Source of the DNA: a bacterium
GTDB lineage: Bacteria > Patescibacteriota > Saccharimonadia > Saccharimonadales > SZUA-47
Assembly: GCA_009923445.1 (NCBI GenBank)
Contig: RFTN01000004.1
Coordinates: 2,438-66,437 of the forward strand
Length of the DNA stretch: 64,000 bases
Reading direction: 5' to 3'
Each line of letters begins with the position of its first letter. Within the stretch, counting starts at the first letter, position 1. Position numbers and translations under genes: made by a program. A model generated the notes under the pieces. That model searched no databases, was not told where the DNA came from, and worked only from the letters and a program-made list of their open reading frames with translations. Below, in pieces: positions 38,414 to 59,397 of the stretch.

Positions 38414-41031
38414 CTAAGGAGCTTTAACGAACAGCTCCGACTTTGCATCGCTGCCACTGTAGAGTAGGCTGTCGGATACCTCTGCTGTAATTGTTTTTGT
38501 ATCGTTAAAAGTTGACTTATAGGTAACCGAATATGGTCCTGAACTGTCAATACTTACCGACCCACCTTCTATTACTTGCCCATCAATCTTAAAAGTTAAT
38601 GCACCCTTAAATTTATCACCACTTAGTGGGGCTGTACCTTGTGTAATTGTTGCAGTAAGCTTGTACGTACCAATTGTTGGTGTAGTGCTAATTGTAAGAC
38701 TTACTGTCGGGCTAATATCTTCACATTTATGAACATCATCTTTTTCTTGACCGGTATCGCTACTGCCTGTTACGAATTTATCACCAGAATACAGCGCTGC
38801 TTCTGCAAAGCTACGTTCTTCTTTTGCAAGTGCAGGGGTACAGTCAGTTGCGATTTTACCAGATACTTTGTCGTATATTTGTTTTTCGCCTGGCTTAATC
38901 GTTGGCTTGACAAACCACGAAGGGTACAGGTCGGTACTGCGACTAGGCTCGCGTGATCCAAGTCCAACGTGCGAGGTTATAACATATGCTGGTAATGTTT
39001 GTAGGCCGGCAGGAACTGCGCGTTTTTCTGGTTTAAGTTCGTCGTGAACACGGCGCATCCAGTTGCCCCAAATGGGCTCTGTCATGGTCTCCATAAAGGC
39101 GCGAGACGCTTTTTGTCTGCTATGATAACCAACCCACACACCAGCAGCATATTGTGTAGAAAAGCCCATAAGCCAACCATCTTTACCGTCATTAGTGGTG
39201 CCGGTTTTTAGTGAAAACTCGTGCCCCTTGTAACGATGGGGTTTATTACTAAAATAGCTAGCGTCAGGATCTGCCATCATGTCAGCAACAATATACGCAG
39301 ATTCTGGTCGTACGACCTGCTCTCCAACTGGTTGTGTCCATTCATATACTTTTTTGTTAGAAGAATCTTCGATTTTAAGTATGTATGTCTGGTCAATACG
39401 GTTACCGTTTCGTGAAATTGTTGTGTATGCATTTACATGCTTATCTAGGCTTAAAAAGGCACCGTCGCCAATTGCTGAGCTCGCATAACACTGAGTTTCT
39501 TCTGTTAGCTTCTCATCGGCATAACACTTGTAGCCGCCGCTGCCGTCTTTGTCTTGTAAGCCAAGCTTATTTGCTAGACCAATAGTCTTGTCAACTCCTG
39601 CAATCAACATTGCTTTAATGGCCGGTACGTTACGCGACCCACCCAGTGCATACCGAAGTGTTACTGGCCCAGGGTAGCGCAAATCGTAATCGTACAAACA
39701 GTTACCACCAGCTTTTGGTACTGCCTTATTTGTACACGGGTAGCCGTCAATAGGCCCTTGTATGTCATACAACACGGTTCCAGCCCCAAAAGTATTTGTG
39801 TTTTCAATAAGAGATAAGTAGTCATAAGGCTTAAAACTTGATCCTGGGGGTAGCGGCTGCTGAGCAAAGTTTATTTCACCTGCTCGTGAACTATCTGCAA
39901 AATCAGCACCTCCCACTAAGGCAACAACCTGACCCGTCTTAACATCCTCGGCAACAAATGCGGCAGTATCAAAAGCATAAAAACTAGGACTCGCGAGCAT
40001 AATTTTAAGCTCTTTTGCGACTTCTTCTTCGGCAATTTTTTGCTTCGGCATATCTAGTGTTGTGGTAACCTTCCAGCCGCCTCGTTTGTAGTTTTTCTCC
40101 GTATACTTAGCTTCAAGCTGATTTTTTGCTGCTAGTACAAAGTAAGGTGCTTGTATACCTGTATATTTAGGCTGACGTGGCTTTATCTTTGCCAGTACAT
40201 CAACTTTTTTTGCTTCATCACGTTGCTCTGGTTTAATTTTGCCCATATCGGTCATAACGTCAAGAACGTAATTTGAACGAGCCAGTAATTGATCTTTTTT
40301 AAATGATTGGCTATAGGGTGAATAGTAGGTTGGTGACTTGGGTATAGATGCTAAAAAGGCTGCTTCATCTAAGGTAAGGTCTTTAGCATTCTTTTGAAAA
40401 TAGGTTCGTGCCGCCACTTCAACTCCGTATTCAATGCCACCATATGGAGCGACTTGTTGTACGCCGCCCTAATAATGCCCTTTGTATCAAATCCGCCGTG
40501 TTTAAAGAAATCTCTATCTTCAACAGCAATAGTGGCATCTTTCATATAATCAGAAATATTATCATATGGAACCGGAACACGTTTTACGGCGTCATAATCT
40601 TCCCACAATAGGGTTTGGCCGGTGCGATCGTAATAACGCACACTGCCGCCTTTGTTACTACCAGAAATATCACGCAAATCAGGTAAGTCTTTTCTAAAGT
40701 AGGCAAATATAGCCATAAGACTAAAAAAGCCTACGACTAGCGCAACACCAGCAAATTTTAAGGCTAGTGTCAGTCCGTCTCGGCTAAACCAAAAAGCAAA
40801 TACTCGTTTTGGGTGTAAACGCCAAAAAAAGCGCTTCACACGTGACTTAGGCAGGCCTTTTAGGCGTGCTGCTTTGCGAGCAAGCTTGGCTTCGCGCCGA
40901 GCAATACTCTTTTCGGTCATAGTGCGGTGAATTTTAACTGTCGAACCAGATTTTGTTACAAACTTATTACCCTTTACTCGTCGTTTTCTGATAGGGGTGA
41001 TAGGCTCTTTAGATTGTGGTTTGTCTGCCAT
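38414..41031 (-). pseudogene. class A penicillin-binding protein (PBP1A), frameshifted with internally deleted GT51 domain
   Basis: There are two overlapping ORFs. ORF 40369..41031 has the TM helix and GT51 motif 1 'AVEDRDFFKHGGFD...IIRAAYN'. ORF 38414..40417 resumes at '...YGVEVAARTYF...LTLDEAAFLA' and has an intact transpeptidase domain ('SSFKP', 'SRN', 'KTGTT'). GT51 motifs GGSTITQQ, RKxxE and SKxxILExYLN are absent. Confidence 0.75.
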
Positions 41032-43139: not shown

Positions 43140-44699
43140 GTGAGCACGTCACTAAGATACATAAAAGGGGTGGGTCAAGCGCAAGAGCGCTTATTTGCTG
43201 TGCTTGGCGTCACTACTGTAGAAGAGCTTATTGCCTATGTGCCTAGGGCGTATAACGATTATTCAGACGTACAAAAAATCGCTCAACTAAAACCTGGTAT
43301 TGTTACATTGCAGGTAACATTTAGTAACATTACAGCGCGTTATGTCAGGCGTGGTCTGCACATTACCGAAGCTCTCGCAAGCGACGAATCGGGTAGTGTA
43401 AAAATTGTATGGTTTAATCAGCCGTTCCGCAAAACACAGCTAGTCGCAAATACACAGTACTTTTTAAGTGGCGAATTTGGCTTAAGTCGTCAGCGTATGA
43501 GTATTGTTAGTCCTGTAGTTGAGCGTGCCGATAATCTTCCTATTCACACCGCCCGTATTGTGCCAATTTACCGCGAAACTAAAGGTTTAAATTCTGCGTC
43601 AATACGCAAGGCGGTTAATGCGGCATTTTTACAGGCCGACCGTGTAAGCGAAACATTACCACAGTGCGATTCAGTCGTATTGTTGACGGGTTCGCTTAAA
43701 CCTGCCCAAAAGCGCCAAGCGCACGAAGCATTACAGCAGGGTAGTGCAAAACTCGCAGTTGGTACACACGCCTTGATTACAGATAAAGTTGCAATACATA
43801 ACTTGGGCCTTGTTATTGTCGACGAGCAACATCGTTTTGGCGTAGATCAGCGCAAAAAATTACAAAGCAAAGCCAAAAGCATGCCGCACGTGCTACATAT
43901 GACAGCAACGCCTATTCCACGCACACTCGCGCTTACGTTATATGGTGAGCTAGATATATCTATTATTGGCGTTATGCCCCTTGGTCGTTTGCCAATAAAA
44001 ACTACTATAGTGTCGCCAAATTCTAGAGCTAACATGTATAAACATGTGTTGCAGCGCCTACTGTTGGGCGAGCAAGTATTTGTTGTGTGTCCGCTTATTA
44101 CCGAAAGCGACATGCTACAGGCGCCATCTGCCGAGAATGTGTACAAACTAATGGCAAAACAGTTTAAAGACCACAGCGTAGGGTTATTGCACGGCAAGCT
44201 AAAAGCTGACCAAAAAGAAGCTATTATGCAGCAGTTTATAGACGGCAAATTAGATATTTTAGTCGCTACTACTGTCATAGAAGTGGGCGTTAACGTACCC
44301 AACGCAACAATTATGATCATAGAAGGTGCAGACAGGTTTGGTTTGGCACAGATGCATCAGTTACGCGGGCGAGTGGGCAGGTCAAATCAACAGGGACACT
44401 GTTATGTTATACCAAGCGACTCTAAGGCTCCTAGTGCGCGGTTGCGGGCATTTGCTAGCACCAATAACGGCTTTACACTGTCCGAACTCGATCTAAAACT
44501 ACGTGGACCCGGAGCGTTATACGGCACAATGCAGTCGGGCGCTTTAGACTTACGAGTAGCCACGTTATCTGACACAAAACTAATAGCCGCTGCAAGGGCA
44601 GGGGCCGAAGAATTTATCTCTAAAGATGAAAATCTGCTACACTACCCAGTAGTAGCAGAACACGTATCACGCATACGCACAATTACAAACTTAAATTAA
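43140..44699 (+). CDS. recG: ATP-dependent DNA helicase RecG, lacking helicase motifs I/Ia
   Basis: The wedge domain, 'VGTHAL', 'DEQHRFGV', 'MTATPIPRTLA' and 'QLRGRVGRS' are present. No GxGKT Walker A occurs anywhere in the protein. At 519 aa it is about 100+ aa short. Confidence 0.85.
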   Translation: MSTSLRYIKGVGQAQERLFAVLGVTTVEELIAYVPRAYNDYSDVQKIAQLKPGIVTLQVTFSNITARYVRRGLHITEALASDESGSVKIVWFNQPFRKTQLVANTQYFLSGEFGLSRQRMSIVSPVVERADNLPIHTARIVPIYRETKGLNSASIRKAVNAAFLQADRVSETLPQCDSVVLLTGSLKPAQKRQAHEALQQGSAKLAVGTHALITDKVAIHNLGLVIVDEQHRFGVDQRKKLQSKAKSMPHVLHMTATPIPRTLALTLYGELDISIIGVMPLGRLPIKTTIVSPNSRANMYKHVLQRLLLGEQVFVVCPLITESDMLQAPSAENVYKLMAKQFKDHSVGLLHGKLKADQKEAIMQQFIDGKLDILVATTVIEVGVNVPNATIMIIEGADRFGLAQMHQLRGRVGRSNQQGHCYVIPSDSKAPSARLRAFASTNNGFTLSELDLKLRGPGALYGTMQSGALDLRVATLSDTKLIAAARAGAEEFISKDENLLHYPVVAEHVSRIRTITNLN

Positions 44700-46667: not shown

Positions 46668-46751
46668 GCGCGAGTGGTGGAATGGTAGACACGCATGCCT
46701 TAGGAGCATGTGCCGCAAGGTGTGAAGGTTCAAGTCCTTTCTCGCGCACCA
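46668..46751 (+). tRNA. tRNA-Leu (anticodon UAG), type II with long variable arm, CCA encoded
   Basis: Manual fold: acceptor GCGCGAG/CTCGCGC, D arm GTGG-AATGGTAGA-CACG, anticodon stem CATGC/GCATG with loop CTTAGGA, variable arm TGCCGCAAGGTGT, T arm GAAGG-TTCAAGT-CCTTT, then A-CCA. It is colinear with E. coli tRNA-Leu. Confidence 0.9.
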
Positions 46752-46760
46752 AAACAATAT

Positions 46761-46790
46761 GCCGACCTTTTTGGTCGGCTTGTTGTTTTG
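46761..46790 (+). terminator. rho-independent terminator after tRNA-Leu
   Basis: Hairpin 'gccgacc ttttt ggtcggc' followed by the T-rich tract 'ttgttgtttt'. Confidence 0.7.
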
Positions 46791-46811
46791 TCGCAAAAAG
46801 ACTTGAACCGT

Positions 46812-46906
46812 AGGGGAGTAGTGCCAGTGGCACTACGAGTAGGAGCGTCACTTGAAAACTTGTTTTCAAAGCAAGCGACGATTCTCAAGTCCTTTCTCGC
46901 GCACCA
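46812..46906 (+). repeat. structured repeat element E1, ending in a duplicate of the tRNA-Leu 3' end
   Basis: The order is 'aggggag', hairpin H1 'gtagtgcc agt ggcactac' (46818-46836), hairpin H3 'ttgaaaac tt gttttcaa' (46852-46869), 'agca', then 'tcaagtcctttctcgcgcacca'. It is homologous to the elements at 52903 and 58385. Confidence 0.7.
46885..46906 (+). repeat. 22-bp direct repeat of tRNA-Leu 3' end (att-like)
   Basis: 'tcaagtcctttctcgcgcacca' is identical to 46730-46751 (half of the T loop, the T-stem 3' strand, the acceptor 3' strand and CCA). Confidence 0.9.
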
Positions 46907-46923
46907 ATTTGACCTAGGTTTGA

Positions 46924-47784
46924 TTAGTTTGTAATTTGGGCAAAAATTAGAACCATTGTTACTACAAAGCCCGTAAACAAGTTTAGCCAAATAAAACGCC
47001 TCCAGGCACGGTTTGTTTTAAACGACTCTTTTTCAGAAACAAATAAGAATTTTTGTATGTTTATTGCATACAGTAAACCGCATAGTGCTATAACTAAGCC
47101 GCCAGTGTTTTGCGCCGCAATTATTACGGCCGCTACTATATACAACACAAAAGCAAACCGCACAGTAGTGGCTGCACCAAGCACAGTTGCTATAGATGCT
47201 ATGTTGGCCTTTTTGTCAGGAATAATATCTTGTACGGCACCAAATGCATGACTGGCCATTCCCCAAAGAAAAAACGCAGCCACAAAAGGCCATGCCGACG
47301 ATGGCCAATGCAGTAGCGAAATCGCATAAACAAGCGGACCCACAAAATGTATGCTACTGGTTATAGAGTCTAGCACGGGCCGTTCTTTAAAACGCAAATA
47401 TGCAACAGAGTAAGCCAACACAAAAAAAGTAAGAGCCAGCAGCACCAAGGCGGGCACAAGCCCCTGTGTAGCTAACAGTATCGCCAAAATAGGCACGTTA
47501 GTTATAACACAGGCCTTAATAATAGTAGGGTGAAACTGCTTTTGTTCGCGCATGCCCTCTATGCCGCCCTTGCGCGGGTTGCGTATATCTGACTCGTAAT
47601 CAAACACGTCGTTAACGCCGTACATTAGCAAGTTATAGGGGAACAAAAAATACAAAGTAGCTAGCAGCCACACGGCCGAATTGCTACCGCCGCACACTAC
47701 ATAACCAGCCGCAAAAGGGTAGGCTGTGTTTGGCCAAGAAATCGGCCGAGATACAAGAACTAATTTACGTAGAGTGTTTATCAT
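46924..47784 (-). CDS. crtEb: UbiA-family prenyltransferase, lycopene elongase-like
   Basis: Polytopic membrane protein with the UbiA Asp-rich motif 'NDVFDYESD'. It is the last gene of the crt operon, with an ATGA overlap with crtYf. Confidence 0.8.
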   Translation of the reverse strand: MINTLRKLVLVSRPISWPNTAYPFAAGYVVCGGSNSAVWLLATLYFLFPYNLLMYGVNDVFDYESDIRNPRKGGIEGMREQKQFHPTIIKACVITNVPILAILLATQGLVPALVLLALTFFVLAYSVAYLRFKERPVLDSITSSIHFVGPLVYAISLLHWPSSAWPFVAAFFLWGMASHAFGAVQDIIPDKKANIASIATVLGAATTVRFAFVLYIVAAVIIAAQNTGGLVIALCGLLYAINIQKFLFVSEKESFKTNRAWRRFIWLNLFTGFVVTMVLIFAQITN

Positions 47785-48119
47785 GATCGCTTGTCTTTGC
47801 TGGCAAATTTATTCCAAAGCGATGGCACTAGTATAGCCGCTATTACCGCATAAAAGAAATCTTCAATAGGGGCCTTACCTACATAAATACCTAGTATTTT
47901 AGAAGTGTCGTAGTCGCAGATTTTTAATGCAACAATTAGTGAGTCGAATATAGTAGTTAGTACCAGCAAACTTATAAACGTATATAGCCACGCTTTTGAG
48001 GGCTTTTTAACACGTATGCTAAACAGTAAAACAACTAGTAGCACAACGATTATGTTAAATACTAGGTACGTTTGCATACACGACTCCAGCCCGTATAAAG
48101 CACCAACGACACATAGCAC
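47781..48119 (-). CDS. crtYf: heterodimeric carotenoid cyclase subunit (small membrane protein)
   Basis: A ~100-aa, 3-TM protein with 'PIEDFFY', typical of small lycopene/C50 cyclase subunits. The likely true start is ATG at 48077. Confidence 0.7.
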   Translation of the reverse strand: MLCVVGALYGLESCMQTYLVFNIIVVLLVVLLFSIRVKKPSKAWLYTFISLLVLTTIFDSLIVALKICDYDTSKILGIYVGKAPIEDFFYAVIAAILVPSLWNKFASKDKRS

Positions 48120-48382
48120 AACAAAAATAAGAAGAACAATTCTTCAATAGGGAACTCGGGGGCGATTCTAATCGGCAGCGTATATTTGCTGCCACCATGA
48201 AAAAATATTCCAAGTGCTATACCCAGTACATCCCAAACTATAAAAACTAGCATGGTAATACCTAGTGTTTTGTAAGTTCTTTTTTTATCAAACCAAAAAG
48301 CAAGCTTATATTTTTTATCTAGCACTAACATGCCAGAAATACTTACCAGCAGCGCCAAAAGGTAGTAGAACTGTTCAATCAT
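48062..48382 (-). CDS. crtYe: heterodimeric carotenoid cyclase subunit (small membrane protein)
   Basis: A 106-aa, 3-TM protein with the 'PIEELFF' motif. Its start overlaps the crtI stop. Confidence 0.7.
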   Translation of the reverse strand: MIEQFYYLLALLVSISGMLVLDKKYKLAFWFDKKRTYKTLGITMLVFIVWDVLGIALGIFFHGGSKYTLPIRIAPEFPIEELFFLFLLCYVSLVLYTGWSRVCKRT

Positions 48383-49898
48383 GGCTGTCTACTAACCTTT
48401 CAATACTAGCAACTTGACCACCTTTTTTATTGCCCGCAATGCGCTTGTATACAAGCTCGGCACCTATGAGGCACATTGGCAGGCCAACACCTGGTACTGT
48501 GTTGCCGCCGACATAATAGAGGTTAGAGAGTTTACGACTTTTGTTGGGGGTTCTAAAAAATGCACTTTGTTTTAAAAGATGCGACTGACCAAGCATTGAA
48601 TTTTGCCATGAGTTAAACGCGCTGCCAAAATCGTTGGGGCCAAATAGGCGCTTTGTTTTAAGTCTATTTACTAAATCAACTCCTGTCATAACAGCTATTT
48701 GCTCAATATAGTGGTTGCTAAGCGACTCAAGATCGGCATCGTTAATGTCAATACTAGCCGGCAGGGGGACAAGTACAAAAACGTTTTCGCAGCCTTTGGG
48801 TGCAACTGCAGGATCTGTTTTGCTTGGCGTCGATATATAAATAGAGGCTTTTTTAGGAATAGTTTTAGTCGTGTAAATTGCATCAAAGTTATGTTGCCAT
48901 TCGTCAACAAACAATAAATTGTGATGTTCGAATTCAGGAATTTTTCCGCTTACGCCTAAGTACATTAGCAGTGCGCTTGGCCCGGGTTGCTTTTTCTTCC
49001 AATAGCTTGCATCAAAACTACGATCTTGTTTTTTAAGTAGCTTTGTTTCTGTATAATGCATATCTGCATTCGAAACTACAATATCCGCCTTAACAATACT
49101 GTCATTTTCAAGTTGCACGGCCGTAGCCTTACCCTCGCTTGATTGTATTGCGCTTACAGGGCTATTGTAGTGGTAGGTTACCGATAGTTTTTTACTCATT
49201 GCAACTAAACTTTGTATTATTGTGTAAATTCCGCCTTTGGGGTAAAAAACACCTTCTTTAAAATCAAGCGCACTCATTAGGCTGTATAGAGCCGGCGCAC
49301 TAAAAGGCGATGTTCCTAAAAACACCATAGGGTATTCTAAAATTTGCTTTAATCGTTGGTCGCTAACATAAGACGACACATAAGAGTCTATAGAGCGAGT
49401 CGTCATGCGCAGCAGGCTTGGAGCATTTTTTAGTATGTCGGTGTGAGTTAAGTCGCTAAGCGTTTCGAAATTTGTGTATAAAAAGTGCTTTAGTGACATG
49501 CGGTACATATGTTCGGACTTTTTAACATATGACTCTAGGGCGGCACCGGCACCTTTTTCTATGTGCTCAAAGGTTGCTGAGTCAGTTGCTAGGTCGCTTG
49601 TAATTGTTATGGGAGCCTTAGCTTCAAAAAATACTTTATAGGCTGGGTCTAAACGCTTTAGGCTTAACCAGTCGTCGATATTTTCGTTAAGTAAACTAAA
49701 GTAGTGTGCAAATACTTCGGGCATTAAATACCACGACGGCCCACTATCAAAAATAAACCCGTCAAGTTCAATCAGGCCGGCTCGTCCTCCAGCAGTGGGG
49801 CCTTGCTCGTACACATGTACGTCGTAGCCAGCTTTTGCAAGCAAATTTGCTGTTGCTATGCCACCAATACCTGCGCCTATTACAATAACTTTACTCAC
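48375..49898 (-). CDS. crtI: phytoene desaturase
   Basis: FAD motif 'VIVIGAGIGGIATANLLAKAG' and C-terminal 'YYVGGNTVPGVGLPMCLIGA'. The GTG start at 49898 forms a GTGA overlap with the crtB stop. Confidence 0.9.
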   Translation of the reverse strand: MSKVIVIGAGIGGIATANLLAKAGYDVHVYEQGPTAGGRAGLIELDGFIFDSGPSWYLMPEVFAHYFSLLNENIDDWLSLKRLDPAYKVFFEAKAPITITSDLATDSATFEHIEKGAGAALESYVKKSEHMYRMSLKHFLYTNFETLSDLTHTDILKNAPSLLRMTTRSIDSYVSSYVSDQRLKQILEYPMVFLGTSPFSAPALYSLMSALDFKEGVFYPKGGIYTIIQSLVAMSKKLSVTYHYNSPVSAIQSSEGKATAVQLENDSIVKADIVVSNADMHYTETKLLKKQDRSFDASYWKKKQPGPSALLMYLGVSGKIPEFEHHNLLFVDEWQHNFDAIYTTKTIPKKASIYISTPSKTDPAVAPKGCENVFVLVPLPASIDINDADLESLSNHYIEQIAVMTGVDLVNRLKTKRLFGPNDFGSAFNSWQNSMLGQSHLLKQSAFFRTPNKSRKLSNLYYVGGNTVPGVGLPMCLIGAELVYKRIAGNKKGGQVASIERLVDSHD

Positions 49899-50725
49899 CT
49901 TATAAATACTCCGCTTATTAGTATCTTTGCAAGTAGCCAAAGTTTATAAAAACTATTCAGACGCACGCGTTCGGACTTAATAGTTGATAGTGTTGCAGCG
50001 TCTAGTTTTTTAAGTAGCTTGCTGTAATAAGCATAGCTTAAGCTCACCGCTTTTTTAGACGAACGGGGCAACGTATGCAGGGCTTTAGTGGCCGTTTTAA
50101 AGTCGCTGTATATGTCTGCCGCAACGGCCTGTTTAGCGGTATCGTCAAACGTGTCATAGCTATAACCCGGAAAATAAAAGCGTTTACGCACCGTGTAGTC
50201 ATTTTGAATATCTCGCAAAAAATTAACTTTTTGAAACGCTGAACCCAATGCCCGTGCACCATGCTCAAGGTTGTTGTACATAGTTTTGTCATTTAAGGTA
50301 AATACTTTTAAGCACAACAAGCCCACAACTTCGGCTGAGCCGTAAATGTACTTGTCGTAATCTTTTTTTGAATACGTCATGGGCTGCAGATCCATACGCA
50401 TACTGTCAAAAAAGGGCGTTATTAACGACCAGCTTATATCAAATTCTTTTACAGTTACTACAAAGCTTTGAATAATTGGGTTCGTGCTGTAGTTTCTTTT
50501 AACGGCGGTGCATAGTTCGGTCTCTAACTCGTCAAGCGCATCTTTTGCGGCTACACCTTGGTAGGTGTCTACAATTTCATCGGCTATTCGTACTAAGCCA
50601 TAAATTGCATATATATGCTTGCGAACGGGTTTTGCAAACAGCTTTGAGCTTAAGCCAAACGAACTACTATAACGCAGGGTCAGTAGCCGGCTTATTTGGT
50701 ACGAAACATCATTGTATAGGTCCAT
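49895..50725 (-). CDS. crtB: phytoene synthase
   Basis: Squalene/phytoene synthase motifs 'YGLVRIADEIVD', 'YIYGSAEVVGLL' and 'AFQKVNFLRDI'. Confidence 0.9.
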   Translation of the reverse strand: MDLYNDVSYQISRLLTLRYSSSFGLSSKLFAKPVRKHIYAIYGLVRIADEIVDTYQGVAAKDALDELETELCTAVKRNYSTNPIIQSFVVTVKEFDISWSLITPFFDSMRMDLQPMTYSKKDYDKYIYGSAEVVGLLCLKVFTLNDKTMYNNLEHGARALGSAFQKVNFLRDIQNDYTVRKRFYFPGYSYDTFDDTAKQAVAADIYSDFKTATKALHTLPRSSKKAVSLSYAYYSKLLKKLDAATLSTIKSERVRLNSFYKLWLLAKILISGVFIR

Positions 50726-50728
50726 AAT

Positions 50729-51784
50729 TTAAAATTCGCGCACGGTAGATTTATTAATAAGTTCTGTAAATGCAGCTTGAGCCGATTTGTTTATGTGTAG
50801 CTGGGCTAGTGCTTGACTAGCGTTGTTTGAGTATTCTAAAACCTTGTCTTTTGCTTTTTTGTAAGCACCGCTTGCCACCAATAGGTCGCGTATAATGTCT
50901 GCCTCTTTTTCGCTACAGCTGCTATTACCAAAAATTGAATTAAATGTTGCTAAATCTTTGGCATTTGAGTTCTGGTTAAAATATTCTACTAAAATAGTCA
51001 TTTTACCCTCACGTATATCGCTTGTAGTTGATTTACCTGTTACGGCTTTGTCGCCAAATGTGCCAATAATGTCGTCGGTAAACTGAAAAGCTATGCCTAA
51101 GTTTTCGGCATACACCCGCAAAAGATCTTGCTCGCTAGTTGGAGCACCCGCCAATACGGCGCCAGTTAACAGTGGCCCTATAAAGCTATAGCTAGCAGTT
51201 TTGTATCGGGCAACTGTTGCGGTTTGAATTTCCCCAGTTGGTTTAAAAGAAATCTCGTTATCGAGTAGTTCGCCGGCGGTCACCTCAAAAATACTCGTCG
51301 ACAACAACTGTTGGCACGCGCTCAGTGTATCTTTAGAAACATGTGCCGCAAGCATCGTTTTATATGCTGCAGATATAAGCAGGTCACCACCAAGCAGTGC
51401 AGCACTCAGTGCAAAATGTTGGCGACTTTTTTCATTGGCAACAAATTGGCTATAGGTTTGGCGATAGGCGCCGTCAATGTTTGGTACACCGTAGCGCAAT
51501 GTATCGTTGTCTATAATATCGTCATGAATAAGCATACTTTGATGAATAAGCTCCTGAGAAAGCGCCAGCGGCATAACAGCGGCTATGTCGCTACCACCAT
51601 ATGCCCTATATGCTAAAAGCGTCATTTTGGGGCGTAAGCGTTTGCCACCCGAATTAACAAGCCTTTGAATTTGTAACCAAAGCAGTTCGTAGTTTGGGTG
51701 TATGGTTTTAGCACTCGCTAGCTGCTCTTCAAAAAAAAGGGCGAGTGATTCTTCGATTTTATCTTTGTGGTCATGTAAATGCAT
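50729..51784 (-). CDS. crtE: polyprenyl (geranylgeranyl) diphosphate synthase
   Basis: FARM 'LIHDDIIDND' and SARM 'FQFTDDIIG', plus 'GGKRLRP'. First gene of the crt operon. Confidence 0.85.
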   Translation of the reverse strand: MHLHDHKDKIEESLALFFEEQLASAKTIHPNYELLWLQIQRLVNSGGKRLRPKMTLLAYRAYGGSDIAAVMPLALSQELIHQSMLIHDDIIDNDTLRYGVPNIDGAYRQTYSQFVANEKSRQHFALSAALLGGDLLISAAYKTMLAAHVSKDTLSACQQLLSTSIFEVTAGELLDNEISFKPTGEIQTATVARYKTASYSFIGPLLTGAVLAGAPTSEQDLLRVYAENLGIAFQFTDDIIGTFGDKAVTGKSTTSDIREGKMTILVEYFNQNSNAKDLATFNSIFGNSSCSEKEADIIRDLLVASGAYKKAKDKVLEYSNNASQALAQLHINKSAQAAFTELINKSTVREF

Positions 51785-51818
51785 ATTATTCTTTAGTATA
51801 TTTTATACTAAATCAACT

Positions 51819-51879
51819 AAGTAAGTTCTTTATTGTTAGTTAAAAGCGCTATATAACTATGGGTTAAGTAAAAAACGTA
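51819..51879. repeat. repeat C (upstream flank of crtE), homologous to right half of 54801-54941
   Basis: 'aagtaagttcttt...ataactatgggttaag...' aligns with gaps to 54878-54941, including an exact 14-mer 'aactatgggttaag'. Confidence 0.7.
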
Positions 51880-51921
51880 CAGGATACCCTGAAGTAGGAC
51901 ACTTAAGCTTGTATTGTTATC

Positions 51922-52480
51922 CTACTTAAGTATACCTCGTTGGCTGTTTTGTAGCCCAAGACTTGTCTTGGGCGATCGTTTAGGTACGTCAGTACCTGAG
52001 CGATCTTTCATTTGTAACTGTTTGCAAATCTGTATTCTTCGGTATGAAGTGGCGTATCCATTTGTTGGTATTCTCAACCAGTCCTTTCTCCTAGCTATGG
52101 TATGGATGCGTAAAGTAGAATGGAGCTCCAGGCAACTGTTCATAGTATCTCCAGTGGGTAAAAGCTATGTCGTTGTCGGTCAGGATAGTCTTGACTCTAA
52201 CTCCATCAAACAGCTTACGTAGGGCTCGCGAGAGCTACGGTTTTGTTCGATTGGGCATTAGCTCTATCATAGTTTGTTTGCTTAGAGTGTCGACTTCCAC
52301 AAGTAACACAGCCTTGCCACCGCTCTTTGTCGGGCTGACGATGAAGTCGAGTTCGTAGTGACCAAGCTCATCACGCAGGATGCGTTCTTCAATCCATCTA
52401 CGTTCACCAATGATTCCCCGGCGGTACATAGCTTACCGTCGTTTAGGCTTACCTTTGAAGTACAGCTTATGTTGCAGAAT
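51922..52480 (-). pseudogene. IS30-family transposase remnant (N-terminally truncated, frameshifts and an in-frame stop)
   Basis: Minus-strand fragments read 'IEERILRDELGHYELDFIVS...AVLLVEVDTLSK', 'KTILTDNDIAFTHW' and 'FTHPYHS*EKGLVENTNKWIRHFIPKNTD', where TAG replaces the conserved Trp. Together they match the IS30 DDE core in three different frames. Confidence 0.8.
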
Positions 52481-52581
52481 CCGGGAGCTTGACAAAAGTA
52501 AAAGTATTATTACTTTACACGGATCTCCTCGTACAGAAGTATACATATTCATCTAGCAACTTAAGTGATATACTAACGTTC

Positions 52582-52803
52582 ATGAACGATGATACTATTC
52601 AAGATTTAAAGCAATTCATATCTGCAACCGTACATCAAGAAATTGCTGGTTTAGAAGAAAGGCTAGAAAACAAGATAGATAGTAGATCCGATGAAATTCT
52701 TTCTGCAATCGGCGATACTACAAGCGATAGGTTTGATTCAGTTGAAGAAGATGTAAAGAATCTCGACACAAGAGTCACAAGACTCGAATCTAACCCAGCG
52801 TAA
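52582..52803 (+). CDS. small coiled-coil protein
   Basis: 73 aa counted from internal Met32 of the track ORF. Heptad-like 'IAGLEERLENKIDSRSDEILSAI...VKNLDTRVTRLES'. No family recognised. Confidence 0.4.
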   Translation: MNDDTIQDLKQFISATVHQEIAGLEERLENKIDSRSDEILSAIGDTTSDRFDSVEEDVKNLDTRVTRLESNPA

Positions 52804-52902
52804 TACTTTTTTCATGATAAGTTTTAATTATAGCTTTTTTTATTATGTAGCTAAACCAGCACAAAGACTAAATACCGATGAACAGTAAGCATTTCTGTAG
52901 CT

Positions 52903-53058
52903 GCGGGGTGAGAAAGTCCAGTGGACTTTAGCAAGGCCGGAAACTGATTTCAAGCTTGCTTGGAGTAGGCTTGAGGCGGGGTCGCGAGTAATCGTGACTT
53001 TGCATACTTTTGCACCTGCAAAATAAAAGTATGTCGAATAGGCTAGCGAAGCAGGCCA
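52903..53058 (+). repeat. structured repeat element E2
   Basis: 'gcggggtgag', hairpin H1 'aaagtcc agt ggacttt' (52913-52929) and 'agcaagg' form the same module as E1 and E3. A possible degenerate 'gtcgaat...aggcca' end lies at 53030-53058. There is no plausible coding frame. Confidence 0.55.
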
Positions 53059-53184
53059 TCGAAAAGTGACTTCCTGATGATACTGTTGAAGCACAGCAAA
53101 TTATTGAAGAACTAGTTAGCGGGGTCATTGAATTCTATATTACAATTGAAAAAATTATGAAAGTGTTGTATTATATTATTCCTA

Positions 53185-54675
53185 ATGTTTGGTAGAAAAG
53201 ATAAGACAATTGAACAAGCACATGAATCGGTTGCGCCGATTAAGCTACCTGAAGCTCCAGAAGAACTTACACTTGCCCCTGCGAGTATAGTAACTTATGA
53301 AAATTTGGACATATCTGATGTTTATGAACAAGTACTTTCTGTAAACGGCAGCGTTAAGCTGATCAACACAAGACTGCCTCTTCCAGCAGATGACGTAACG
53401 CTTAATGTTGAGACTGACGGAGATACTTTTGACGTATATGGAACAATAAGCTTGCTAGATAAAAAACGTGCTGCAGGGGTTGTTAAAAAAGTTGCTAAGC
53501 TTATAGAGAAGTCTAGTGAAGATACGGGCGGCACTATAACTACATACAGGGATGGTTTAGACGTAAAGGATCAAAACGGAACGCGCCTCCTTATCGCTCA
53601 AGGTGCCTATTACTCGGAAAACGAAAGCATCATCGTGAGCACTGGTAAACTTAAGGATGGATACGACTCGACATTGGATGTATTTGAGTCTCCTGAGCTA
53701 ACTAAGGAGCTATTTAAAGCGACAGTAGAACAGACGCTTGGGGCAATGGCGATGGTGTTGAATGTTGCATACGCAATGGAAGAAAACCAAACTGGGCGCG
53801 AAGTTACTTTGCGCGTTGTCCAGAAAAATTCTCAAAAATTGCAAGATACAAAATCACAAGAAGAAGTTGAGCAATTGGTAAATGATGGGGCACATCCAAA
53901 GCTAACACTTGATGATATTGGTGGCCAAGCTGAAGCAAAAGAAGAGATCAAGAGTTTGGCGTACGCATTATCACACCCAGAATCATACCGAAGGTGGGGT
54001 GCACAGCCTCCTAAAGGCATACTTTTTGAAGGTCCGCCCGGCACAGGCAAGACATTATTGGCTCGTGTAGTGGCGTCAGAGGCAGATGCTTCGTTCTTCC
54101 CAGTATCGGTAGCAGATGTTACTTCTAAGTGGTATGGCGACTCTGAAAAAAAGATCAAACGAATATTCGAACAAGCAGCCCGAGCAGAGAAGGCTATTAT
54201 ATATTTTGACGAACTTGATGCTTTATCGCCATCGCGCAACAGCTCTCACGAGGCAACGAGTCGCGTAGTCAGCATAATCTTGCAGTGTATGGACGGGTTC
54301 CTAGCTAAAGGAAATGTGTTTGTTATTGCATCGACAAATAATGCAGATAAGATAGATGAAGCATTACTTCGTACTGGCCGCTTTGATAGGAAAATATACA
54401 TAGGTTTGCCGGATAGTGAAGCACGCAAATCTATCTTTAACATACATATGAAAAAAGCATGCGAAACAGCAGATAGACAACTATTCGATGAGATTGATCT
54501 TGACGAACTTGCTGAGGCCGCAGAAGGAATAAGTGGTGCGGATATTAAGGAAATGGTAAGAAGAACGCTCGAACAAAAAGTGCGTACAGAAATGATTTCT
54601 AAACAGGCGAATGACAACCCTGTCACTACACAGGATATATTGAATCAGCTATCTGCTTACAAAAAGATAAATTGA
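53185..54675 (+). CDS. AAA+ ATPase (classic FtsH/CDC48-type AAA module) with uncharacterised ~240-aa N-terminal domain
   Basis: Walker A 'GPPGTGKTLLAR', Walker B 'IIYFDELDAL' and a second region of homology 'ASTNNADKIDEALLRTGRFDRKIYI'. The N-terminal half has no recognisable motif. Confidence 0.8.
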   Translation: MFGRKDKTIEQAHESVAPIKLPEAPEELTLAPASIVTYENLDISDVYEQVLSVNGSVKLINTRLPLPADDVTLNVETDGDTFDVYGTISLLDKKRAAGVVKKVAKLIEKSSEDTGGTITTYRDGLDVKDQNGTRLLIAQGAYYSENESIIVSTGKLKDGYDSTLDVFESPELTKELFKATVEQTLGAMAMVLNVAYAMEENQTGREVTLRVVQKNSQKLQDTKSQEEVEQLVNDGAHPKLTLDDIGGQAEAKEEIKSLAYALSHPESYRRWGAQPPKGILFEGPPGTGKTLLARVVASEADASFFPVSVADVTSKWYGDSEKKIKRIFEQAARAEKAIIYFDELDALSPSRNSSHEATSRVVSIILQCMDGFLAKGNVFVIASTNNADKIDEALLRTGRFDRKIYIGLPDSEARKSIFNIHMKKACETADRQLFDEIDLDELAEAAEGISGADIKEMVRRTLEQKVRTEMISKQANDNPVTTQDILNQLSAYKKIN

Positions 54676-54800
54676 CCTTTAACATAGGGTTAAATTACGG
54701 TTTTGTATCGTGCATCAGATAAGAATAATCTTAAACTTGTTACTCCTGAACCTACGCTAAGTAATAACGTACTGATAGGTAATAATGTATTTGCTACTTC

Positions 54801-54941
54801 ACAAAGCCCGAAAACAAGTTTAGCCAAATAAAACGCCTCCAGGCAGGGTTTGTTTTAAGCGACTCTTTTTCATAAACAAGTAAGTTCTTTGAATGTATGT
54901 TAGTTGCGTTATAAAACTATGGGTTAAGCGGAAAATACGTA
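54801..54941. repeat. composite ghost junction: copy of crtEb 3' end fused to copy of crtE upstream flank
   Basis: 54801-54880 matches 46964-47043 (76/80 by manual alignment). 54878-54941 matches 51819-51879 with gaps. The switch point is at 'aagtaagttcttt'. Confidence 0.85.
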
Positions 54942-55513
54942 ACGTTTGCATCATGAAAAGGGAAGGCGTTCCAGCTTGGGCAGCTTTGGTGTACTAAATG
55001 GTCAAAAACATCCTCTGGTGTTTGGGGCCCCTGCATATGTTTAGGCAGCCAAGAGCTTGTCAGGGTAAATAAATCGCCGTGTTGGTTAAGTGGTACCAGT
55101 CCTACACCGTGCGGCTCGCTGTCAGGGCTGTATATGATATTTTGTTCTAGATCGTGCTCTTCGGTTGCGTCTATATCTAGTATTACGCCGTACCCATTTT
55201 TAACCATATGACGTAGTAGCTTACAAAAACTTTTCTCGCTTGATTCGTTGGCAAAGCCAAGGTCACGCCAAGAATCTAGCCCAATATCTGTCGCTATCAT
55301 GTTCATTGCAACGGTCATAAGGCTATTTTTACGATGTTTAGTAAGGTGTGCAGACTCGTCAATTGCACAAAACCCAACGTATGCAAGATACGACTCTGTG
55401 CTAACTTCGTTAGTACTAAGCCTATCGAAGGCCGTTGGGTAACACACCGGCAAGGGAGCGTCCGGTCCGGTTAACCCCTTGCGCACTTTGTCTTGGTAGC
55501 TTTGCTCACTCAT
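54917..55513 (-). CDS. hypothetical protein (198 aa)
   Basis: Intact ORF with no confident motif. Its last codons ('...PLNP*') lie inside the repeat, which also occurs, degraded, upstream of crtE. Confidence 0.5.
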   Translation of the reverse strand: MSEQSYQDKVRKGLTGPDAPLPVCYPTAFDRLSTNEVSTESYLAYVGFCAIDESAHLTKHRKNSLMTVAMNMIATDIGLDSWRDLGFANESSEKSFCKLLRHMVKNGYGVILDIDATEEHDLEQNIIYSPDSEPHGVGLVPLNQHGDLFTLTSSWLPKHMQGPQTPEDVFDHLVHQSCPSWNAFPFHDANVTYFPLNP

Positions 55514-55572
55514 ATAGAATGAGACAGATTATCTGTTAGTTTACGTTTTTATGCAAGGTATTAACCGGTTTG

Positions 55573-55610
55573 TTAGGCAAAAAACTGTATAAACAACCAG
55601 GTGGAAGGGC
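55573..55610. repeat. degraded copy R1 of the DUF2177 gene 3' end
   Basis: 'ttaggcaaaaaactgtataaacaaccaggtggaagggc' compared with 61472-61509 gives about 33/38 identical. Confidence 0.5.
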
Positions 55611-55636: not shown

Positions 55637-55664
55637 GGTTTAAATTCCTTATCCTCAGCCAAAT
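55637..55664 (+). repeat. tRNA-3'-end-like motif, copy a
   Basis: 'ggtttaaattccttatcctcagccaaat' has a T-loop-like segment followed by '...CCNCAGCCAAAT'. Confidence 0.5.
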
Positions 55665-55773
55665 TGATTATTCAGCTAATACAACCAAACCTCATATCTG
55701 GAAGTTGAAAAGTTCGAATACCCTTATCTCCTAGGAAAAGTTACTCATTCCTGACTCAAAACCAAAAAACCCG

Positions 55774-55808: not shown

Positions 55809-56036
55809 ATGAGTACAAATAAATCTGTTAGCCTTAAAGAACTACGCGAACAGTTCCCTAAGTATATTGAAGCTATTTCTAAGGGACAAAGCTTTACGGT
55901 AGTTAAACGATCAAAACCTATTTTTCAGTTAAACCCAATCAGTGACGAAGGCGATTGGCAAACTATTGCTGATTTTACTACCATCGAAGATAATGGCGTT
56001 AAAGCTGAAGATGTACTGGCAGTACTAGAGGCATAA
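55809..56036 (+). CDS. type II antitoxin, Phd/YefM family
   Basis: 75 aa. 'VSLKELREQFPKYIEAISKGQSFTVVKRSKPIF' is typical of the Phd/YefM N-terminal fold. Confidence 0.75.
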   Translation: MSTNKSVSLKELREQFPKYIEAISKGQSFTVVKRSKPIFQLNPISDEGDWQTIADFTTIEDNGVKAEDVLAVLEA

Positions 56037-56042
56037 TTTATT

Positions 56043-56288
56043 ATGGCTGATAAGATAAAAAAGCTTTTAGCCAAACTTAAATCTCAAGAGCGTGAATTAG
56101 TTAAGTTGTTGATATTGCGAGTCAAATTAGACGATACCCTAGGGCTAGATATTAAGCAACTAAAAGGTCATTCTGATCTTTTTAGAGTACGAAAGGGAAG
56201 GTTAAGAATTGTATTTAGAAAAGATGCAAACAGCTTTTTAATTGTAAGAATAGACCGCCGGAACGAAAAAACTTACAAAGATCTTTAA
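56043..56288 (+). CDS. type II toxin, RelE/ParE superfamily
   Basis: 81 aa. 'LKGHSDLFRVRKGRLRIVFRKDANSFLIVRIDRRNEKTY' matches the RelE/ParE core pattern. It lies 7 nt after the antitoxin gene. Confidence 0.75.
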   Translation: MADKIKKLLAKLKSQERELVKLLILRVKLDDTLGLDIKQLKGHSDLFRVRKGRLRIVFRKDANSFLIVRIDRRNEKTYKDL

Positions 56289-56304: not shown

Positions 56305-56339
<35 letters not shown>

Positions 56340-56346
56340 CTACAAA

Positions 56347-56374
56347 AGTTAGAATCCATCATCCCCAGCCAAAT
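56347..56374 (+). repeat. tRNA-3'-end-like motif, copy b
   Basis: 'agttagaatccatcatccccagccaaat'. Confidence 0.55.
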
Positions 56375-56540
56375 TTGTTTTATAGTATTTTCATCTGTTA
56401 TTTCGGTTTTGATTTTTCGGTTATTGTGAAATAATTCAATCATTTGTAAAATCCTTATCTTTTAATTAAGTTCGAATCCTTTATGCCCTTTTACGGCTAC
56501 CCATATATATGCTTAAGTAAAAATCTGCTAATATAATCCT

Positions 56541-56690: not shown

Positions 56691-56849
56691 GGTAAGTTCT
56701 TCTAGAGATCCATTCCTTTAGTATTGCTGTCGGACTAGCGTGTCTTAACTAGAAAGCACCGTTCCATCGGGATACTTTCTTATTAATAGTCATCACAGTC
56801 CGTCATTATGGTTTCCTTTTTCAAACATTGTGAAGAAGTTCATGAACTT

Positions 56850-56903
56850 GTAAATCCTCATCTGTAAAAGTTCCATTAACGTCCTGCCTCCCCGGCCAAA
56901 TTG
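56850..56903 (+). repeat. tRNA-3'-end-like motif, long variant, copy d
   Basis: 'gtaaatcctcatc|tgtaaaagttccattaacgtcctgcct|ccccggccaaattg' is the same ends as the short copies, with a 27-nt internal segment. Confidence 0.7.
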
Positions 56904-57035: not shown

Positions 57036-57947
57036 ATGAACTACCAAGAATATCTAAAATCAATCATTAAAGCGTCAGGCTGGTCTCAGGAGCAACTTGC
57101 ATCGCAATTGGGCGTAACTTTCGTAACTGTAAATTCCTGGATAAATAGTAGATCTAAACCCAGAGCAAAAGCACTGGTACGTATAGAAAAACTCTATTTC
57201 GACACTGTTGGTACCGAAACGGTAGATACTAATATACTCGCTAAGCTAAAAGCTCAGGCCCTAAAGAGCAAAATTACCCCTCAGCAGCTAGTAAGCAACA
57301 AAGAATTACTTGATAAACTAACACTTTACTTAACCTATCATACGAATACTATCGAAGGTAGTACTATGACATTATCTGATGTCGGGGATGTTATCTTTGA
57401 TCGCAAAGTATTGTCTAACCGCACGGCAATTGAACAGGCAGAGGCACGCAACCACCAGGCAACACTCCATTGGTTAATAGATTTACTAAATCAAGATAAA
57501 AAATTAGTAATAAGCGAAGGACTTATATTAGATACCCATTTGCGACTTATGAATGGAATTATTAGTGATGCCGGTAAATACCGTAACCATGCAGTTAGGA
57601 TTCTAGGCTCGAGGGTGGTATTGGCAAACCATTTAAAAGTTCCTGAACTTGTTAAGGAACTTAGTGGGGACGATTCGCTAAAGTACGATCTGATCTCCAA
57701 ACTAGCTCGAACACATGCACAATTTGAGCAGATTCACCCTTTTAGCGATGGCAACGGTCGAACGGGTAGATTGATCATGCTTATTCAGGCCCTAATTGAC
57801 AGTAAGGTTCCGCCCCTAGTGCGTAAAGAACGCAAGTTTGCATACTATAAGGTCCTTGAAATTGCTCAAACAAAAGGTATTTATGAGCCTCTAGAATTAT
57901 TTATTGCTGAATCTATGTTATTTAGTAACGAGCTCCTCAGTAGTTAA
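57036..57947 (+). CDS. Fic-domain protein with N-terminal XRE-type HTH
   Basis: HTH 'SGWSQEQLASQLGVTFVTVNSWINSRSKP', Fic motif 'HPFSDGNGRTGRL' and an upstream 'TNTIEGS' (S/TxxxEG-type) helix. Confidence 0.85.
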   Translation: MNYQEYLKSIIKASGWSQEQLASQLGVTFVTVNSWINSRSKPRAKALVRIEKLYFDTVGTETVDTNILAKLKAQALKSKITPQQLVSNKELLDKLTLYLTYHTNTIEGSTMTLSDVGDVIFDRKVLSNRTAIEQAEARNHQATLHWLIDLLNQDKKLVISEGLILDTHLRLMNGIISDAGKYRNHAVRILGSRVVLANHLKVPELVKELSGDDSLKYDLISKLARTHAQFEQIHPFSDGNGRTGRLIMLIQALIDSKVPPLVRKERKFAYYKVLEIAQTKGIYEPLELFIAESMLFSNELLSS

Positions 57948-58011: not shown

Positions 58012-58060
58012 AGATCCTCATCTGTAAAAGTTCCATTTACGTTCTGCCTCCCCAGCCAAG
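58012..58060 (+). repeat. tRNA-3'-end-like motif, long variant, copy e
   Basis: 'agatcctcatctgtaaaagttccatttacgttctgcctccccagccaag' has about 43/46 identity with copy d. Confidence 0.7.
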
Positions 58061-58345: not shown

Positions 58346-58384
58346 TTTGCTTGAGTTGGAGGATTCGAATTCCGAGTGAGCATT

Positions 58385-58499
58385 CGGGGTGAAAACTGCC
58401 AGTGGCAGTTTGCAAGGCAATCTTCACTTGCAAACTAGTTTGCAAAGCAGAAGTTGCGGGCCTGCAGGATGCAGGTCGAATCCCTCATCCCCGGCCAGA
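58385..58499 (+). repeat. structured repeat element E3, ending in tRNA-3'-end-like motif (copy f)
   Basis: The order is 'cggggtga', H1 'aaactgcc agt ggcagttt' (58393-58411), H2 'ttgcaag...cttgcaa', H3 'ttgcaaac ta gtttgcaa', 'agca', then '...ggtcgaatccctcatccccggcca'. Confidence 0.7.
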
Positions 58500-58586
58500 T
58501 GCAACAGCAGAATCTCAGACCCAAGACCCTTAGCTGGTGCGCATAGAACTGTCATGACATTCTTGAGCAACTAGATAAGCTAATTG

Positions 58587-59265: not shown

Positions 59266-59397
59266 GCCCTGGCCTTAGGCAAAAAACTTAATAAACAACC
59301 AAGTGGCAAGGCTACATACACCAGCTGTTAGCACTGTGCCCCATAGCAAATCAACCACGGTTACTTTTATTGGCCAGTCTTTATATACGGCTTGCGA
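59266..59397 (-). repeat. copy R2: displaced 3'-terminal fragment of the DUF2177 gene
   Basis: 132 bp with about 120 identities to 61463-61594. The reverse strand still reads '...KDWPIKVTVVDLLWGTVLTAGVCSLATWLFIKFFA*'. Homology ends abruptly at 59397. Confidence 0.9.

Follow-up and report, generated by a model that had tools for sequence, protein, structure and literature searches.

A short piece of the lycopene elongase gene crtEb lies in a metagenome-assembled Candidatus Saccharibacteria (TM7) genome 7.8 kb from the intact gene, and this piece is probably a non-functional recombination scar, marking a place where the carotenoid (crt) operon, or at minimum its 3′ part, once stood in a second copy. 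The window, that is, the whole 64,000-nt stretch of DNA that was analysed, was also found in GCA_010027835.1 contig RGUJ01000032, in ENA ERZ28577356 scaffold_37 and in Logan contigs of SRR8075950. The crtEb comparison covered 80 loci from GTDB species representatives; L027, whose CrtEb protein is 96% identical to that of the window, served as the outgroup for the fragment and its source. Two further sources were used: L005 (ENA ERZ27275550), a related genome syntenic with the window on both sides of the variable segment, and L091, a second metagenome from a different sample or population. Hereafter, C denotes the source region in crtEb, C′ its dead fragment, F1 and F2 the flanks of 198-type genes, and J1 and J2 the junctions. 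The features are as follows.

46668-46908, plus strand: tRNA-Leu (46668-46751) and a non-coding element, the left border of the variable segment (ARAGORN, Rfam and an exact repeat)
46924-51784, minus strand: intact C50-carotenoid operon of crtE (50729-51784), crtB (49895-50725), crtI (48375-49940), crtYe (48062-48382), crtYf (47781-48119) and crtEb (46924-47784; lycopene elongase, UbiA family), each on the minus strand (Pfam polyprenyl_synt, SQS_PSY, Amino_oxidase, Lycopene_cyc twice, and UbiA)
46956-47067, minus strand: C, the source of the fragment inside the functional crtEb (gapped and ungapped repeat alignments)
51785-51879, minus strand: F2, the crtE leader (51785-51829) together with what is left of the end and flank of a 198-type gene (51830-51879) (alignments)
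51925-52430, minus strand: pseudogene of an IS30-family transposase, reduced to the catalytic C-terminal half and interrupted by four stops (NCBIfam NF033563 and Pfam rve)
53061-54675, plus strand: AAA+ ATPase cassette, 496 aa, IetA-like (Pfam AAA; PADLOC IetA, E = 4e-39)
54676-54790, no strand: spacer of 115 unique nt from the stop of the AAA gene to C′, with J2 at its right edge (no match elsewhere)
54791-54878, minus strand: C′, the dead crtEb fragment, about codons 245-276 of 286 (alignment, translation and crtEb matches elsewhere)
54872-54890, no strand: J1, the crossover zone, where CAGAAACAAATAAGAATTTTT of crtEb, CATAAACAAGTAAGTTCTTTG of the fragment and AATCAACTAAGTAAGTTCTTTA of F2 are mutually similar (alignments, start of the L005 homology at 54879, and a shared 13-mer)
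54879-54941, minus strand: F1, the native last 8 codons of the 198-aa gene including the stop (54917-54941) and the first 38 nt of its 3′ flank (54879-54916) (L005 and identity to F2)
54917-55513, minus strand: the 198-aa gene, intact, a rare accessory gene (open reading frame)

The dead crtEb fragment

Ungapped alignment of C and C′ gave a direct repeat of 84 nt (46964-47047 and 54801-54884) in which 79 positions were identical (94%), and the 76 matches over 80 positions given by the initial annotation for 54801-54880 against the crtEb end at 46964-47043 were reproduced. Gapped local alignment widened the repeat to 46956-47067 and 54791-54907, and an exact run of 34 nt was common to C (46975-47008) and C′ (54812-54845). 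On the minus strand, C′ translated to ...LLVYEKESLKTNPAWRRFIWLNLFSGFVK followed by a stop, against ...FLFVSEKESFKTNRAWRRFIWLNLFTGFVVTM... in CrtEb, so that the related C terminus read previously on this strand was recovered. Furthermore, C′ matched crtEb 3′ ends of other genomes, at 76-86% in L027, L012, L025 and even Cryobacterium (L072), which indicated that C′ is truly derived from crtEb and is not a low-complexity match. The 84-nt core of C differed from L027 at one position only.

C′ has lost its coding capacity: the start codon is absent, about 30 codons are left, and the remnant is truncated. Its frame carries a 2-nt insertion and then a premature stop after ...GFVK, and upstream in the same frame stands the stop of the 198-aa gene. 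The 198-aa open reading frame and the fragment's peptide share one reading frame (54791-54941, minus strand), with the TAG stop and 13 codons between them, and read-through of the former would add a CrtEb-like hydrophobic tail; the shared frame is probably a coincidence, with a 1 in 3 chance of occurring.

The substitutions bear on the age of the copy. C′ differed from C by five substitutions, all five nonsynonymous (F to L, S to Y, F to L, R to P, and T to S) and all derived in C′, as the outgroup L027 agreed with the functional crtEb at these sites, whereas none of the 17 synonymous sites differed. The probability of finding no synonymous difference was 0.0015 at a pS of 0.32 and less than 1e-4 at a pS of 0.5. 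These data indicated that C′ left the resident crtEb lineage recently and then decayed without selection; selection on it was relaxed relative to the functional crtEb, as judged from a small sample of five substitutions. C′ thus appears to be a young copy of the resident crtEb that has since drifted neutrally by about 6%, an age argument that is based on 84 nt and 63 nt only, and gene conversion between C and C′ could mimic such youth.

Flanks of the 198-aa gene and the two junctions

The sequence to the right of the fragment, 54872-54941, aligned with 51812-51879 upstream of crtE, and over F1 (54879-54941) 50 of 63 positions were identical to F2 (79%). The local alignment score of 46 compared with 17.1 ± 2.5 (maximum 30) for dinucleotide-preserving shuffles, none of 2000 of which reached 46, and no other 300-nt tile of the window scored above 32. 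Precise alignment of the three regions therefore placed the similarity, including the previously noticed resemblance to the crtE upstream flank, beyond chance. A 13-mer, AAGTAAGTTCTTT, occurred exactly at 51819 and 54878 only. The assignment of 54917-54941 to the last codons of the 198-aa gene also held.

Comparison with L005 settled the identity of F1. F1 was 89-90% identical to L005 over 64 nt, as part of a 732-nt block (54879-55610) at 89%, and the 198-aa protein of L005 was 88% identical to that of the window. Since the L005 homology started exactly at 54879, F1 is the native end and flank of the 198-aa gene and not a displaced copy of the crtE flank. Hence, of the fusion originally described, between a crtEb end and the crtE flank, the crtEb half stood and the right half was reassigned to the 198-aa gene.

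F2, on the other hand, groups elsewhere. It contains a relic reading ...VRFLLNP* at about 51857-51880, which adjoins the 3′ end of the IS30 pseudogene, and both the LNP*-like remnant and the adjacent IS30 fragment of the initial annotation were recovered here; the pseudogene matched NF033563 with E = 5e-28 (98.5 bits, profile positions 121-253 of 267) and Pfam rve with E = 1.7e-6. F2 was 96% identical to L091, and the whole arrangement of F2, about the last 140 nt of the IS30 relic, and crtE was present in L091 too at about 95%; its occurrence in a different sample indicated that this package is old and real. In L090, the homology reached 51829, the common part being the 45-nt crtE leader only, and no significant match to the 198-type relic was found upstream of crtE there. 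F1 and F2 were about 21% diverged, with F1 grouping with L005 (89%) and F2 with L091 (96%), and the F1/F2 split is thus much older than the copying of C′ (21% versus 0 of 17 synonymous sites and about 6%). For reference, the pS between the window and its relatives was 0.14 for crtEb (L027), 0.17 and 0.50 for crtE (L091 and L090, respectively), 0.32 for the 198-aa gene (L005), and 0.76 for a housekeeping gene of 273 aa (L005).

Past the switch point, the L005 flank of the 198-aa gene ran on for about 24 nt in register with F2, into crtE-leader-like sequence. By shuffling, this continuation alone gave a p of about 0.03, with collinearity not counted in. Since the L005 flank continues in register with F2, F1 is truncated at J1, and within this narrow clade a 198-type gene followed by the crtE leader is probably an ancestral order. 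The 13 nt of F1 beside J1 were identical to F2 of the window and matched L005 at 10 of 13 positions, which hints at F2-type ancestry of the flank at this place; such ancestry would fit two former units of a 198-aa gene and a crt operon, followed by later allele replacement.

A former adjacency of a 198-type gene and crtE in this clade is thus likely from the alignments, and a functional link between the 198-aa protein and the carotenoid operon is unsupported. The 198-aa family is very small: 5.8 billion proteins contained only 6 clusters of it; the protein had no match in Pfam, NCBIfam, PADLOC or PHROGs, and its AlphaFold2 model, built from a 6-sequence alignment, had a pLDDT of 38. No homologue was present within the fetched flanks of about 20 Saccharibacteria crt loci, and no crt genes were present on the contigs of five homologue clusters. 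Likewise, an intact 198-aa gene followed by crtE was not found on the contigs of those five clusters, in the two closest crtE relatives or in the 80 crtEb loci, and none of the relatives or contigs checked contained an intact second crt copy. A metagenome scan with the degenerate flank pattern TTARCCCRTAGTTWTATARCGC returned two contigs, both of unrelated context. The earlier suggestion that the protein is or was linked to the operon, for which homologues upstream of crtE in other genomes were to be sought, is thus unsupported as to a shared function, and annotators should not infer a carotenoid role for this protein.

At J1, the parental sequences were crtEb 47041-47067 and the 198-aa gene flank as preserved in L005 and F2. 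The patch of similarity between them fits a microhomology-mediated join, and the switch at a short shared repeat held to this extent, because J1 lies within an imperfect crtEb/198-flank similarity such as illegitimate or short-repeat recombination would give. At J2, about 54790, C′ ends at about codon 276 of the 286 crtEb codons and meets the spacer. The spacer (54676-54790) matched neither the fetched loci nor any other part of the window, and the missing part of the 198-aa gene flank, sought there beyond C′, gave no significant match. A pure insertion of C′ was rejected, as the remainder of the flank is absent beyond C′.

The 10-mer GTAAGTTCTT, of which a third copy at 56692 had been put forward as evidence, proved uninformative, as it occurred five times in the window (48272, 51821, 53261 on the minus strand, 54880 and 56692). 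The copies at 48272, 53261 and 56692 had no flanking similarity and were not conserved in relatives, and on these grounds a role of the 10-mer as a recombination motif was rejected. For the whole window, 0.18 copies were expected, and the three extra copies all fell within 48-57 kb; they are probably due to chance.

Independent contigs addressed the concern that two alleles or strains had been misjoined. The k=31 Logan contig L002 (56334 to 54816) spanned the F1/C′ junction by 63 nt, and the k=31 Logan contig L097 (7863 nt, ending at 54841) spanned the spacer/C′ junction by 51 nt; both stopped within the 34-nt exact run of C and C′. Two further assemblies of larger k (L001/L004 and L003) had the same structure as the window. 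With its own five substitutions and an indel in about 88 nt between unique flanks, and with the assemblies in agreement, C′ is unlikely to be a mis-assembly. In the k=31 Logan assembly, 46979-54841 formed one 7863-nt contig with the 34-nt run at both ends, and taken by itself that graph could also represent a chromosome that has lost the segment alongside a 7.8-kb circle.

The carotenoid operon and its mosaic segment

C50-carotenoid and lycopene elongase genes have previously been reported in Patescibacteria (PMC9948471). The crt gene order of the window recurred in about 20 Saccharibacteria loci, and the nearest crtEb relatives among GTDB species representatives were nearly all labelled Saccharibacteria or Patescibacteria, with Actinobacteria next at about 50% identity. 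The crtE-B-I-Ye-Yf-Eb cluster was widespread in Saccharibacteria metagenome-assembled genomes, CrtEb being 53-66% identical in about 24 species representatives and 96% identical in one (L027), and the relatives that followed were actinobacterial (Cryobacterium, Arthrobacter and Georgenia, about 50%). Known Saccharibacteria hosts belong to the Actinobacteria, among others of that phylum, and the distribution of the cluster is compatible with an old transfer from host to epibiont.

The left border of the variable segment is formed by tRNA-Leu and the element behind it, in which the 3′ 22 nt of the tRNA are repeated exactly (46730-46751 and 46885-46906). The window was 98-99% identical to L005 over 46668-46907, where the homology ended, and 89% identical over 59275-59397; between these anchors the genes of L005 are different ones and occupy 5.6 kb. 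The element after tRNA-Leu (46752-46908, about 155 nt) is present in two tandem copies in L005 (16215-16705), and its 98-99% identity there persists despite the pS of 0.76 in the housekeeping gene. A similarly built element was observed at 58360-58500, with a CCAGTGG-loop hairpin, a second hairpin and a T-arm-like end with CCA, and a related element has coordinates 3716-3830 in L009. None of these nearby tRNA-like elements matched an Rfam family.

Other blocks of the segment have other relatives. The stretch from crt through F2 into the IS30 relic was common to L091 and L027 at about 94-95%. The self-contained AAA cassette (53061-54673) was 93% identical in L092/L093, in an unrelated context; the identity began 124 nt before the start codon and ended with the stop codon (L092 4906-7457), and in these other contigs a Bac_rhodopsin gene stands convergent to the cassette. 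The window lacks an IetS-like protease partner. Relative to L005, 55611-59274 is an insertion with a Phd/ParE-like toxin-antitoxin pair and an HTH-Fic gene. Within it, five remnants resembling tRNA 3′ ends (55638-55668, 56348-56375, 56854-56899, 58014-58059 and 58470-58498) share the pattern ...TCC.TCATCCCC[AG]GCCA; successive pairs of them bracket the Phd/ParE-like pair (55809-56288) and the HTH-Fic gene (57036-57947), and together they look like an array of small cassettes with att-like repeats. A (TA)n microsatellite of about 30 nt (56306-56336) lies just before one of the remnants. The region 46.9-59.3 kb is thus a patchwork of blocks with differing relatives and ages. Elsewhere in the window, L003 and L004, from the same population, carried 467 extra nt at 43666, inside recG (665-675 aa versus a 519-aa open reading frame in the window), and 175 extra nt at 40453; these length differences could reflect assembly collapse or real indels.

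The gene content and repeats were also inspected for a mobile element. The open reading frames of 46.9-54.9 kb were the crt genes, the IS30 pseudogene, a coiled-coil reading frame and the AAA gene, with no tyrosine or serine recombinase gene in the repeat-bounded segment, and 44-58.5 kb contained no long inverted repeat. An IS30 composite transposon was rejected, as there is a single truncated pseudogene and neither a flanking IS pair nor terminal inverted repeats. An integrase-type island with C and C′ as att sites was rejected too, because the intact crtEb is inside the bracketed segment and the fragment is upstream of the operon. Diverged repeats of 60-110 nt are far too long for a transposition target-site duplication, and this origin of the repeat was discarded.

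Origin of the scar and comparison with known systems

In the history that we favour, about 88 nt of crtEb came to stand between two illegitimate junctions, J1 joining the fragment to nucleotide 38 downstream of the 198-aa gene stop and J2 joining it to the spacer behind the AAA cassette. A second copy of at least the crt 3′ part would formerly have been located at 54.8 kb. It may have arisen by tandem or partial duplication of the 7.8-kb crt segment, or it may have been the predecessor of the present operon before a loss and re-acquisition. The body of this copy, which may once have been complete, would have been removed by microhomology-mediated deletion or recombination ending in the 198-aa flank, and the fragment would then have drifted neutrally by about 6%. 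In a separate and older event, insertion of an IS30-family element would have destroyed a 198-type gene directly upstream of crtE and left F2. This is the order of events that we infer, and all of them would fall within the mosaic, horizontally exchanged segment 46908-54878, from tRNA-Leu to the 198-aa gene.

One course of events, possible though we hold it only tentatively, makes the fragment the footprint of loss and regain: the operon would have been deleted when a foreign 198-aa block joined crtEb by homology-facilitated illegitimate recombination, and it would later have been re-acquired from a close relative via the near-invariant tRNA-Leu element as an anchor. If this is true, the pigment operon is an exchangeable cassette among Saccharibacteria populations, and the C/C′ repeat, with its 34-nt run, still allows loss of the 7.8-kb segment in one step. 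An end product identical to that of a lost second copy would be left by a short templated patch. Here one event of replication or repair that switched template twice (microhomology-mediated, of the filler-DNA type) would have placed a copy of about 90 nt of crtEb, 7.8 kb distant, in the gap that separates the AAA gene from the 198-aa gene, and no second operon would ever have existed. In favour of this origin, which we rate as rather unlikely, the fragment is young, close to its source and directly oriented, measures 88-117 nt and ends at two illegitimate junctions; yet the absence beyond C′ of the flank remainder seen in L005 and F2 means that it is not a simple insertion, and such patches are rarely documented in bacteria. 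We regard as decidedly unlikely the initial proposal that a unit of 198-aa gene and crt operon was present twice, with the unit at 54.9 kb losing its operon by deletion between short repeats and the unit at 51.8 kb losing its 198-aa gene to IS30. The 198-type relic in F2 directly upstream of crtE beside the IS30 pseudogene, the continuation of the L005 flank into crtE-leader-like sequence, and the position of J1 in a shared imperfect repeat, next to 13 nt that equal F2 exactly, all speak for it. F1 and F2, however, are 21% diverged and F1 groups with L005, so that many synonymous differences from the resident operon would be expected in the operon of the F1 unit, whereas C′ has none at its 17 synonymous sites, and the proposal could be rescued only by an extra gene conversion or allele replacement. 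What survives of its IS30 part is that an IS30-family element cut the F2 relic; derivation of F1 and F2 from a single duplicated unit does not agree with the youth of C′ and the 21% divergence.

That C and C′ are instead recombination sites of an excisable 7.8-kb crt-AAA element, integrated in the Campbell manner at the crtEb 3′ end, is very improbable. Direct repeats (94%, with the 34-nt exact run) do bracket exactly 46979-54841, and the single repeat-bounded contig of the k=31 graph is compatible with a circle and a deleted chromosome, but an integrase or recombinase is absent from the segment, which has only the IS30 pseudogene; the intact gene lies inside the bracketed segment and not outside; the five differences are all in C′ and spread along it, unlike the product of a simple crossover; and the larger-k assemblies phase the repeats as integrated. 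Scarcely credible is a functional element, either a terminator or 3′ untranslated region of the 198-aa or AAA gene or a trans-antisense regulator of crtEb carried by the AAA transcript. The fragment lies between two convergent genes, and its plus-strand copy is 94% complementary to the crtEb mRNA over 84 nt. Fold z-scores in the fragment (+0.24, +1.46 and +0.98), nonetheless, did not go beyond shuffled controls; no terminator-like site was found in 54676-54916, no promoter match in the fragment, and no Rfam family other than tRNA at the gathering threshold in the whole window. The fragment was also not conserved in any relative compared, and its substitutions are those of neutral decay. Finally, an artefact, be it chance similarity of AT-rich sequence or a chimeric assembly of two strains, has next to no likelihood: the source is a metagenome-assembled genome and the k=31 contigs break within the repeat, but the shuffles rule out chance, C′ carries five private single-nucleotide differences and an indel in about 88 nt with unique sequence on both sides, and Logan contigs span each junction, with three other assemblies in agreement.

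If the fragment is the scar of a former second copy, as we favour, it is inert and its value is historical. The crt operon would sit in a tRNA-Leu-linked segment that illegitimate recombination, IS activity and inter-lineage exchange have rebuilt repeatedly, and at least part of the crt locus would once have been present twice, or would have been lost and regained. Through the direct repeat of the fragment and the live crtEb, pigment could plausibly be lost spontaneously. An open reading frame should not be called at the fragment.

The operon itself shares gene order and Pfam content with the actinobacterial crtE-B-I-Ye-Yf-Eb C50 clusters of the decaprenoxanthin/sarcinaxanthin type, and its CrtEb is 48-53% identical to the homologues of Cryobacterium, Arthrobacter and Microbacterium; in contrast to these clusters, the fragment covers no more than about the final 10% of crtEb and has no capacity to encode an enzyme. 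As in tRNA-linked islands with repeats of the tRNA 3′ end, the variable segment starts after tRNA-Leu and the 22-nt copy, and the cargo of L005 differs there, whereas the repeat pair considered here is a crtEb fragment and not a tRNA end, and an integrase is absent. As in homology-facilitated illegitimate recombination, the mosaic blocks end at illegitimate junctions near conserved anchors (the tRNA-Leu element at 98-99% and the DUF2177 3′ end at 89%), a likeness that is drawn here from block boundaries only. The closest resemblance in kind is to the gene remnants that illegitimate, microhomology-mediated deletion or the remodelling of duplications leaves in bacterial variable regions, remnants which are likewise short, promoterless, frame-damaged, collinear with the parent, joined at short imperfect repeats and neutral. 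Unlike such remnants, the parent crtEb is intact 7.8 kb away in direct orientation, so that the repeat pair could delete the whole operon, and an older relic of the junction partner itself stands upstream of crtE. The scar is thus an instance of a known phenomenon, a gene remnant of illegitimate recombination in a tRNA-linked hypervariable region.
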